Below, piece after piece: positions 1,791 to 13,374 of a stretch of DNA of 64,000 nt. Every line of letters starts with the position of its first letter. The stretch's first letter is position 1. The position numbers and the translations under genes were made by a program. Source of the stretch: Escherichia coli (GTDB lineage Bacteria; Pseudomonadota; Gammaproteobacteria; Enterobacterales; Enterobacteriaceae); the NCBI RefSeq assembly GCF_050920415.1, contig NZ_CP169309.1, one strand, 5' to 3'. The notes under the pieces were generated by a model. The model did no database searches. It was given only the letters and a program-made list of their open reading frames with translations, and had not been told where the DNA came from.

Positions 1791-1905
1791 TCTAAAATCC
1801 TCGGAGATGTGATCTGCCCGGCATTAAACCGCACAGATATAAAAGTGAAAAAGGGGGCCATATGCAGGCCCCCTAACCAAACGTGTACTACCTGGTCTAT
1901 AAGGG

Positions 1906-2030
1906 CTCTCCCCCTTCATATTTCGCGCCGCAGATGCGTTGTCTTCGCTCGCTCATCCCGGTCACTTACTGATGTAAGCTCCCGGGAATTCTCGAGCTTG
2001 CCGCCTTTCTGCAACTCGAACTATTTTGGG
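1906..2030 (-). repeat. ERIC/IRU-like imperfect palindromic repeat in tsf-rpsB intergenic region
   Basis: hand alignment: about 86% identity over a 77-nt core to the reverse complement of the ERIC copy at 44556-44682, with changes on both palindrome arms (CCCCAG/CTGGGG vs CCCGG/CCGGG). Confidence 0.5.
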
Positions 2031-2047: not shown

Positions 2048-2995
<948 letters not shown>

Positions 2996-10302: not shown

Positions 10303-11727
10303 TTACTGCATTAACAGATAGATGGTGCTGTCGCCGCGCTGAATATTCAGTGCCAGCACAGACGGTTTGCTGTCGAGAACTTTACGCAGTTCAGCGATGT
10401 TTTTCACTGCCTGCTGGTTCGCACCAATAATCACATCACCTTTCTTCAGGCCGATCTGCGCAGCCGGAGTGCCCGTTTTCACGTTGTTCACCACCACGCC
10501 CTGATCTTTGCCTTTGTTGCTCATCTCAGCGCCTTCAATGCCGTTGAAGATGGTGCTGGAATCAACCTGATTCTGGCTGCTCTGCTGCAGTTCCAGGTTC
10601 ACGTTAACCTGCTTCCCGTCGCGCAGTAAGCCCAGGGTCAGTTTGCTGCCTACCGGCATAGTGCCCACCTGAGCACGCAGTGCGGCAAAGCTGCTGATTG
10701 GCTTACCGTTCAGTGAGGTGATCACATCACCCGCTTTAATGCCCGCTTTCGCGGCGGAAGAGTTCGGCAGAACCTGGCTTACGAAAGCACCGCGCTGGGC
10801 GTCAACTTTCATCGCTTTCGCCAGATCGGAGTTCAGCTCAGTGCCCATAATACCCAGCTCACCACGTTTCACCTGGCCGTATTCCACCATCTGCGAGGTC
10901 AGGTTTTTCACCATGTTGCTCGGGATAGCAAAACCGATACCGATGTTTCCGCCGTCCGGTGCGAGGATCGCGGTGTTGATACCAATCAGTTCGCCGTTCA
11001 GGTTAACCAGCGCGCCACCAGAGTTACCCCGGTTGATCGCAGCATCGGTCTGGATGAAGTTTTCATAGTTTTCGGCATTCAGACCGCTACGCCCCAGCGC
11101 AGAGACAATCCCGGAAGTTACCGTCTCGCCCAGACCAAACGGGTTACCAATTGCTACGGTGTAATCACCCACGCGCAGTGCATCAGAATCCGCCATCTTA
11201 ATTGCGGTCAGATTTTTCGGGTTCTGGATCTGGATCAGCGCGATATCAGAGCGCGGATCTTTGCCAACCATCTTCGCGTCGAACTTACGACCATCGCTCA
11301 GCTGGACTTTAATCACCGTCGCGTTATCAACAACGTGGTTGTTGGTGACGACATAGCCTTTATCGGCATCAATGATGACGCCGGAACCCAGCGCCATGAA
11401 TTTCTGTTGTTGGCCGCCGCCATTACCGCCCTGGCCCCCCTGGCAGAACGGAGAGCTCTGGAACGGAGAACCTTCCTGGCAGAACGGAGAATCATCACCG
11501 AAGAACTGCTGGAAATTACGCGGCATACGCGGCGTATTAACGGTTGTGCTACCTTCTACGTTAATGCTGACCACTGAAGGCATCACCTTTTCGAGCATCG
11601 GTGCAAGGCTTGGCATCTGCTGGGCTGTCGTTGCTGAAGAAGTCTCAGCCGCCGTTGCAGAGAGCGGAGATAACGCCAAACCTAAACTCAGAGCCAGTGC
11701 ACTCAGTGCTAATGTGGTTTTTTTCAT
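10303..11727 (-). CDS. degP: periplasmic serine endoprotease DegP/HtrA
   Basis: 474 aa; signal peptide, trypsin-like GNSGGAL motif, two PDZ domains. Confidence 0.95.
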   Translation of the reverse strand: MKKTTLALSALALSLGLALSPLSATAAETSSATTAQQMPSLAPMLEKVMPSVVSINVEGSTTVNTPRMPRNFQQFFGDDSPFCQEGSPFQSSPFCQGGQGGNGGGQQQKFMALGSGVIIDADKGYVVTNNHVVDNATVIKVQLSDGRKFDAKMVGKDPRSDIALIQIQNPKNLTAIKMADSDALRVGDYTVAIGNPFGLGETVTSGIVSALGRSGLNAENYENFIQTDAAINRGNSGGALVNLNGELIGINTAILAPDGGNIGIGFAIPSNMVKNLTSQMVEYGQVKRGELGIMGTELNSDLAKAMKVDAQRGAFVSQVLPNSSAAKAGIKAGDVITSLNGKPISSFAALRAQVGTMPVGSKLTLGLLRDGKQVNVNLELQQSSQNQVDSSTIFNGIEGAEMSNKGKDQGVVVNNVKTGTPAAQIGLKKGDVIIGANQQAVKNIAELRKVLDSKPSVLALNIQRGDSTIYLLMQ

Positions 11728-11772
11728 GTATTTCAGTCTCGATTAACAGATAACGCAAAATTGCTGTGTTCT

Positions 11773-11800
11773 TCAGATTCGTTTTATAGCGCGAAGTTCC
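11773..11800 (-). promoter_or_regulatory. sigma-E type promoter upstream of degP
   Basis: minus strand reads GGAACTT - 16 nt - TCTGA, matching the sigma-E -35/-10 consensus, about 50 bp upstream of the degP start. Confidence 0.65.
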
Positions 11801-11856
11801 GAACTAAAGTTTCTGCAAAAGGTAAAAATTTATTGTTCGTCTTTACAAAAGCCTGG

Positions 11857-13374
11857 TTATTGTTCTACGGCCATCAGACGTCGGTATTCATCCCAGGCAT
11901 AGAGGTCGGTCATACCGCTGATATAATCCTGCAGCAGGCGGCAACGGTAATAATATTCCCATAGCGGAAACTCAGGAGAATCTGACGGTAATTTACTGAC
12001 AGCCTCGACATAGGCCAGCCGATGGCGCGTCGAGAGTTTGTGGAATAAGCGCGATTCAATAGGGAAACGTTTCACCCGTTCTTTTTCTACCAGTTCAGTA
12101 AAGTCTGATAACGACAGGCTTAATAAAGGGCGATAAATCTCTAATAATCCGCTAATGACCCGATAGCCCTGCAATTCAAGCTGCTCGACATCTGGATGGC
12201 TAAACACATGTTTTACAGCGACATTTTTATATAGCTTTAGAAGATCGCTGCATTCGCTGGCATCTTCCAATAATGCATGATTAAACGTTCCGGCGAAAAT
12301 CGCAGGCAGATTATCAATAAATCGTTGTGCTGCGTAGGGTACCAGTTTATTTAGGGTGTTTACCCGTAAATACATAAAAAACTGATCTTCCGTACTGCGG
12401 CTTAAACTATTTGAGCGTGATTTTTCCCAGGCATTTTCAACCACCAGCGAAAAGAGCGAACCTTTCTCATGCTGGCCCCACGCTTCGTGCAAATGATGAT
12501 AAAGCTGCTCAACGCTGAATATTCTTTTCTCTACCGCATCTTCAAGATCTGCCACACAATAGGAGATGTCGTCGGCAGCTTCCATAATCCACGTTAATGG
12601 AAAACGACTGTAAAGCGCCAAATTAAGTTCTTTACGCAACCGGGCAATATAAGCTTCTTCAGAAAGATAATAACCCGGCTTTTTCATTAAATAGTGATGT
12701 GTCTCAGGCGTTTCGCCACGCCACCACGCCGGACGGGTATATTTTAAAATACCGCCAACCTGTGCCCAGGTGAGATTCATCCGCATCAATGTATGCACCA
12801 GACGAATACCTTGTGCATTCCCCTCAAAATGGCATAAGTCCTGACGAATTTTGCGCCGCAGTTCGTTAAGCGGTTCTTCCCCTTCCCGTAAACGTAATGC
12901 CACCACGCAGCAGCGATCGTCAGTCAGAGGCTGGCTTTCGGCATCAGCCGGAAACAAACGCTGGCGAAACCAGTCATTTATCGCCGCTTCACCAAAATGG
13001 CCAAACGGCGGATTGCCGATATCGTGCATCAGGCATGACATCTCAACAATACTTTCAAAGGGGCCGGTCAGTTCATCCAGACCATACTCTTCCAGTAATT
13101 TAAGTTCTTTCAGACGGCTTAAAATTTCTTTGGCGATGTAGCGCCCCACCTGCTGGACTTCCATTGAATGGGTTAGACGCGTGCGCACGGCGGCATTTCG
13201 CTCCAGCGGAAAAACCTGGGTCTTTTGTTGCAGACGACGAATTGCCGGAGAGTTAATAATACGCCCGCGATCGCTCTCAAAGATTCGCAGGATCTCATGT
13301 TCGGTTTTAACGCCCTGTGGTGAACGGTAACGACGATGCCAGTTTATTTTTTTTCGGAAATCAATCTGTGCCAT
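11857..13374 (-). CDS. dgt: dGTP triphosphohydrolase
   Basis: 505 aa ORF; HD-domain motif [10 protein letters not shown]. Confidence 0.95.

Follow-up and report, generated by a model that had tools for sequence, protein, structure and literature searches.

The sigma-E promoter of degP in the dgt-degP gap of Escherichia coli and the elements around it

The promoter of degP/htrA is among the founding examples of sigma-E-dependent transcription and serves as a routine reporter of envelope stress. Its start was reportedly mapped by Lipinska et al. in 1988, and Erickson and Gross are said to have used it in 1989 to define sigma-E. Envelope stress, as outlined in PMC3306311, leads to the cleavage of RseA by DegS and RseP, which sets sigma-E free. 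Rhodius et al. (2006; PMC1312014) gave the consensus of sigma-E promoters as a -35 element GGAACTTTT and a -10 element (T/C)GGTCAAAA with a strongly preferred spacer of 16 nt, a discriminator of 5 or 6 nt and a purine start. The gene degP is a core member of the sigma-E regulon (PMC1312014) and is found among the active sigma-E promoters in published lists, and A/T-rich UP sequences have been described at sigma-E promoters by Rhodius in 2006 (PMC1312014) and 2012.

In E. coli K-12 MG1655, Cappable-seq places a start on the degP strand at 180844 with a score of 41.6, by far the strongest in the region (PMC4782308 supplement), and the same start is found in the TSS-seq data of Cho et al. (2014), where its 51-nt upstream string ends in ...GAATCTGAAGAACA (PMC3923258 supplement). 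A sigma-E ChIP-chip region covers 180545-180945 (Cho et al., 2014; PMC3923258), and the same ChIP study finds sigma-S bound at the degP promoter and sigma-70 absent. The degP-cdaR transcription unit is assigned to sigma-E, and dgt forms a separate unit (Cho et al., 2014; PMC3923258).

The closest described system is htrA of Salmonella enterica, where sigma-E ChIP-seq shows a peak. Three starts have been mapped there, which give leaders of 40 nt, 47 nt and 215/449 nt (Choi et al., 2017; PMC5602114). The transcript with the 40-nt leader was first observed under stress only, the transcript with the 47-nt leader is constitutive and low-level, and a fourU thermometer in the htrA leader has been validated by SHAPE and reporter assays (PMC5602114). 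A second stress pathway also acts on degP. In a review, Cpx control of degP is credited to Danese et al. (1995), and two of the 41 known CpxR sites compiled in PMC9600279 (Table S1) belong to degP. Cpx activation induces degP 27-32 fold, and an induction of 6-fold remains in a cpxR deletion (PMC9600279).

The core promoter and its K-12 counterpart

The window is the whole stretch of E. coli DNA analysed here, 64,000 nucleotides in length. The locus lies between two minus-strand open reading frames, which RefSeq annotation of identical DNA identifies as follows.

10303..11727, minus strand: degP (htrA) coding sequence, 474 aa
11857..13374, minus strand: dgt coding sequence (dGTPase, 505 aa), which lies upstream of degP

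Two RNA families also score above their Rfam gathering scores elsewhere in the window, both on the minus strand: CssrA (RF02798, 136.6 bits) at 1853..1962 and t44 RNA (RF00127, 83.5 bits) at 2801..2887.

An earlier note, made from the letters alone, had proposed a sigma-E promoter of the form GGAACTT-N16-TCTGA at 11773-11800 on the minus strand, within the short dgt-degP spacer. A pattern search of the window confirms this motif at 11800..11773 and nowhere else in the 64 kb, and the gap that holds it is 129 nt long. The parts of the promoter are as follows.

11801..11827, minus strand: A/T-rich stretch, possible UP-element, -60..-34 (70% A+T vs 48% for the window)
11794..11800, minus strand: -35 element GGAACTT, -33..-27, 7/7 match to the sigma-E -35 consensus GGAACTT(TT)
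11778..11793, minus strand: spacer CGCGCTATAAAACGAA, 16 nt, between the -35 and -10 elements
11773..11777, minus strand: -10 element TCTGA, -10..-6, in which T, C and the last A agree with TCAAA
11768..11772, minus strand: discriminator AGAAC, 5 nt, a length within the 5/6-nt preference of sigma-E
11767, minus strand: +1 of the sigma-E promoter, an A, transferred from MG1655 180844 and giving a 40-nt leader

Motifs were scored with our own consensus-count scan against the consensus of Rhodius et al. (2006). The claimed match to the sigma-E consensus holds at all seven positions of the -35 element and in the 16-nt spacer, and at three of the five positions of the -10 element. A TCAAA-like -10 element is expected 15-19 nt downstream of the -35 element, preferably at 16 nt, and TCTGA follows GGAACTT after exactly 16 nt. 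Dinucleotide-preserving shuffles gave a mean expectation of 0.02 matches to GGAACTT-N16-TCTGA in the window, and the pattern occurred in 2 of 100 of them. The looser pattern GAACTT-N15-18-TCTGA finds the same single site (0.04 expected), and a perfect -35 element followed at 15-17 nt by TCNNA is likewise found at the degP site alone (0.23 expected). When one mismatch was allowed in the -35 element, seven sites with TCNNA were found in the window vs 6.6 expected, and the other matches were discarded as chance. The A/T-rich stretch at -60..-34 is possibly a UP-type sequence, with a composition compatible with those of sigma-E promoters.

The earlier note had named a mapped start at odds with the -10 element as grounds for giving up the promoter. 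Coordinate transfer puts MG1655 180844 at 11767 of the window, an A six nt downstream of TCTGA, and the measured K-12 start is thus consistent with the -10 element. The purine start that sigma-E prefers 5 or 6 nt past the -10 element is found here as this A after the 5-nt discriminator. The alignment with the K-12 degP promoter, which the note had also called for, shows the two to be identical apart from two spacer nucleotides: the -35 and -10 elements, the spacer length, the discriminator, the +1, the leader and the CpxR boxes are the same. Over 321 aligned bases (-253..+68), the window and K-12 differ at three positions, one at -129 in dgt and two in the spacer at 11792/11791 (-25/-24), where the window reads CGCG and K-12 reads CAGG. 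The CGCG form of the spacer is also found in O157:H7, E. whittamii and Salmonella arizonae, and the S. arizonae locus carries GGAACTT-N16-TCTGA as the window does. Compared to the consensus of Rhodius et al. (2006), the promoter shares GGAACTT, the 16-nt spacer, the 5-nt discriminator, the A start and the A/T-rich upstream sequence, but its -10 element is TCTGA instead of TCAAA, and GGAACTT is followed by CG instead of TT.

Motif, geometry, conservation (below) and identity to the K-12 promoter are all observed at 11800..11773 (minus strand), and this segment is almost certainly the core of the promoter of degP/htrA for sigma-E (RpoE, of the ECF type). From the K-12 data, we infer with very high confidence that sigma-E holoenzyme would start transcription at 11767 in this strain as well, the two spacer changes notwithstanding. 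The sigma-E promoter of degP is an already known element: it is the same as that of K-12 degP/htrA and the counterpart of htrAp3 of Salmonella enterica, the stress-induced promoter whose 40-nt leader has the same length as that of E. coli degP.

Conservation within E. coli and across Enterobacteriaceae

Of 5426 complete E. coli genomes, 5424 match a 301-nt query over the dgt-degP gap, and many of the matches are 100% identical. The two genomes with no match may be deletions or mislabelled replicons, and three of the about 5424-5425 matches lie on plasmid-labelled records, which are possibly mislabelled replicons or deletions as well. With a 66-nt promoter query, the identity is at least 99% in 4020 of the 5424 genomes and 95-99% in 1404. 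The version in the window is the commoner one in E. coli, and among the matches listed, the most divergent version (95.5%) retains both promoter elements.

For the family, we compared 80 degP loci of Enterobacteriaceae from about 25 genera, with one genome per species. The strict pattern GGAACTT-N15-17-TCNNA is present in 60 of the 81 upstream regions (window and K-12 counted), with TCTGA as the -10 element in 51 of these 60 and a 16-nt spacer in 57. In the remaining regions the elements deviate by one base, as in GGAACTA of Enterobacter and TGAACTT of Kosakonia, and a relaxed pattern that allows for such deviations finds the motif in all 81. The 79 distinct upstream sequences were aligned with MAFFT, and their mean identity was measured against the window, with the following results.

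+1: 1.00, invariant
TTTAC, 11826..11822 (-59..-55): 1.00
-35 element: 0.97
-10 element: 0.95
Proximal CpxR box: 0.90
-54..-34: 0.65
Stretch directly past the dgt stop codon: 0.53
Discriminator: 0.52

A working promoter with an activator site upstream would be expected to leave just such a footprint in these alignments. In Klebsiella, Kosakonia, Shimwellia, Buttiauxella and others, the conserved leader block ACACAGCA is separated from TCTGA by an insertion of 5-6 nt. This insertion leads to predicted leaders of 45-46 nt in about a third of the species, and the sigma-E start in these genera is predicted to be shifted relative to the thermometer.

Other starts and other sources of degP transcription

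Two further starts mapped in K-12 transfer to the window.

11774, minus strand: second start (K-12 180837), 47-nt leader, stationary phase, seen by Cho et al. (2014; PMC3923258) only
11942, minus strand: third start, weak and within dgt (K-12 180669), 215-nt leader, seen by Cappable-seq only, with a score of 1.8 (PMC4782308)

The K-12 starts mirror the trio of leader lengths in Salmonella, 40, 47 and 215 nt, and the 215-nt leader that arises within dgt from 180669 has its counterpart in Salmonella htrAp1. The second start lies inside the sigma-E -10 element, 7 nt upstream of 11767, and the sigma-E spacer contains a TATAAA at 11788..11783 (minus strand) that is a plausible -10 element for this start on its sequence. 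A TATTAT at 11955..11950 (minus strand), seven nt upstream of the 11942 start, is by the same kind of reading a plausible -10 element for the 215-nt leader.

These features leave room for a reading in which the sigma-E motif is incidental and degP is driven by a nested sigma-70/sigma-S promoter that starts at 11774 with TATAAA as its -10 element. The stationary-phase start and a sigma-S ChIP region that spans this site (Cho et al., 2014; PMC3923258) speak for it, as do the constitutive, low-level transcript with a 47-nt leader in Salmonella (PMC5602114) and the 80-95% conservation of TATAAA across genera. However, Cappable-seq does not see 180837 and shows at this spot only 180844, with a high score (PMC4782308), sigma-70 gives no ChIP signal, and Cho et al. 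(2014; PMC3923258) assigned both starts to sigma-E. A simple promoter scan of the gap found no sigma-70-type -35/-10 pair, and the sequence around GGAACTT and TCTGA is less conserved than these elements themselves, a difference that a promoter built on TATAAA alone would not call for. We consider it very unlikely that the nested promoter takes the place of the sigma-E promoter, and most likely the promoter of the 47-nt leader is a minor, additional one. The sigma-S ChIP signal and the start 7 nt upstream nevertheless show that sigma-E is not the sole holoenzyme at the degP promoter.

Transcription from the dgt side, by read-through or from an internal promoter of dgt, would leave the intergenic motif with little to add if it were the main source of degP mRNA. 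A simple scan of the dgt-degP gap found no terminator-like hairpin, so the two genes may to some extent be co-transcribed, and the weak start at 11942 with its TATTAT and the 215/449-nt leaders that arise within dgt in Salmonella (PMC5602114) point the same way. Against this source as the main one, the internal start scores 1.8 vs 41.6 for the intergenic start (Cappable-seq; PMC4782308), dgt and degP-cdaR are separate units (Cho et al., 2014; PMC3923258), and the promoter footprint is strongly conserved. On these start scores, units and footprint, dgt read-through was rejected as the main explanation, and its probability is very small indeed. The earlier note's further point, that transcription of degP need not depend on dgt, is borne out by the K-12 data, in which the 180844 start, the sigma-E ChIP region and the assignment of the unit to sigma-E agree.

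That the motif is a chance match with no promoter function might be argued from the three of five consensus positions in its -10 element and from the chance-level yield of the relaxed scans, but the 0.02 matches expected per window, the K-12 start mapped at the correct distance with a positive sigma-E ChIP signal and the elements conserved across genera contradict it and reduce its probability to almost nothing.

The leader, the CpxR boxes and the stress inputs

The sigma-E promoter would deliver an mRNA whose leader matches a known RNA family from its first base.

11722..11767, minus strand: degP leader, match to the HtrA fourU RNA thermometer (Rfam RF02700), 77 bits vs a gathering score of 52

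The match spans the full model (1-46), and its first base is the mapped +1. In the RF02700 alignment, UUUU at +8..+11 pairs with the Shine-Dalgarno sequence GAGA at +28..+31. In conservation the leader equals the promoter elements, which can be put down to the RF02700 thermometer. The Salmonella leader scores 78.4 bits vs 77 for the window, and of 20 loci from other genera, 7 also exceed the RF02700 threshold. One stem pair of the E. coli hairpin is A-C, against A-U in the Rfam consensus. The predicted fold of the leader is weak (-3 kcal/mol, z-score 0.95) and no more stable than that of shuffled controls, and RNAalifold, applied to the leader together with 60 nt of the coding sequence, returned no consensus structure. 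The E. coli degP leader is, on the family match, a putative fourU thermometer, whose function is documented in Salmonella.

Both CpxR boxes listed for degP (PMC9600279) are found as exact matches upstream of the start.

11832..11846, minus strand: proximal CpxR box degP1, GTAAAGACGAACAAT, -79..-65
11982..11996, minus strand: distal CpxR box degP2, GTAAATTACCGTCAG, -229..-215, within the dgt coding sequence

They are boxes of the GTAAA-N5-6-GTAAA type, and the proximal one has one perfect half-site. Relative to the weak start at 11942, the distal box (11996..11982) occupies -54..-40. Direct activators of housekeeping promoters typically bind at this position, so the distal box may serve the 11942 start. 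Control of degP could then be tiered, with each box serving a different promoter, the proximal box the sigma-E promoter and the distal box the weak internal start. We put this forward tentatively, as a rather unlikely arrangement. If true, it would account for a CpxR box that lies 230 bp upstream of where sigma-E starts, and the transcript with the 215-nt leader could give Cpx a route to degP that bypasses sigma-E.

For the sigma-E promoter itself, the proposed course of events begins with misfolded outer-membrane proteins, upon which sigma-E would be freed from RseA. Sigma-E holoenzyme would then bind GGAACTT as the -35 and TCTGA as the -10 element, 16 nt apart, and initiate at the A at 11767, and the resulting mRNA would have a leader of 40 nt and be made independently of dgt. 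A second envelope-stress input would come from phosphorylated CpxR on the upstream boxes of the GTAAA type, and the leader, as a fourU thermometer, would mask the ribosome-binding site at low temperature.

The value of these results lies in confirmation, and they carry little weight as a discovery. For E. coli, they bring together in 130 bp and the end of dgt a sigma-E core promoter, CpxR boxes, a nested start, a start internal to dgt and a putative thermometer that begins at +1.
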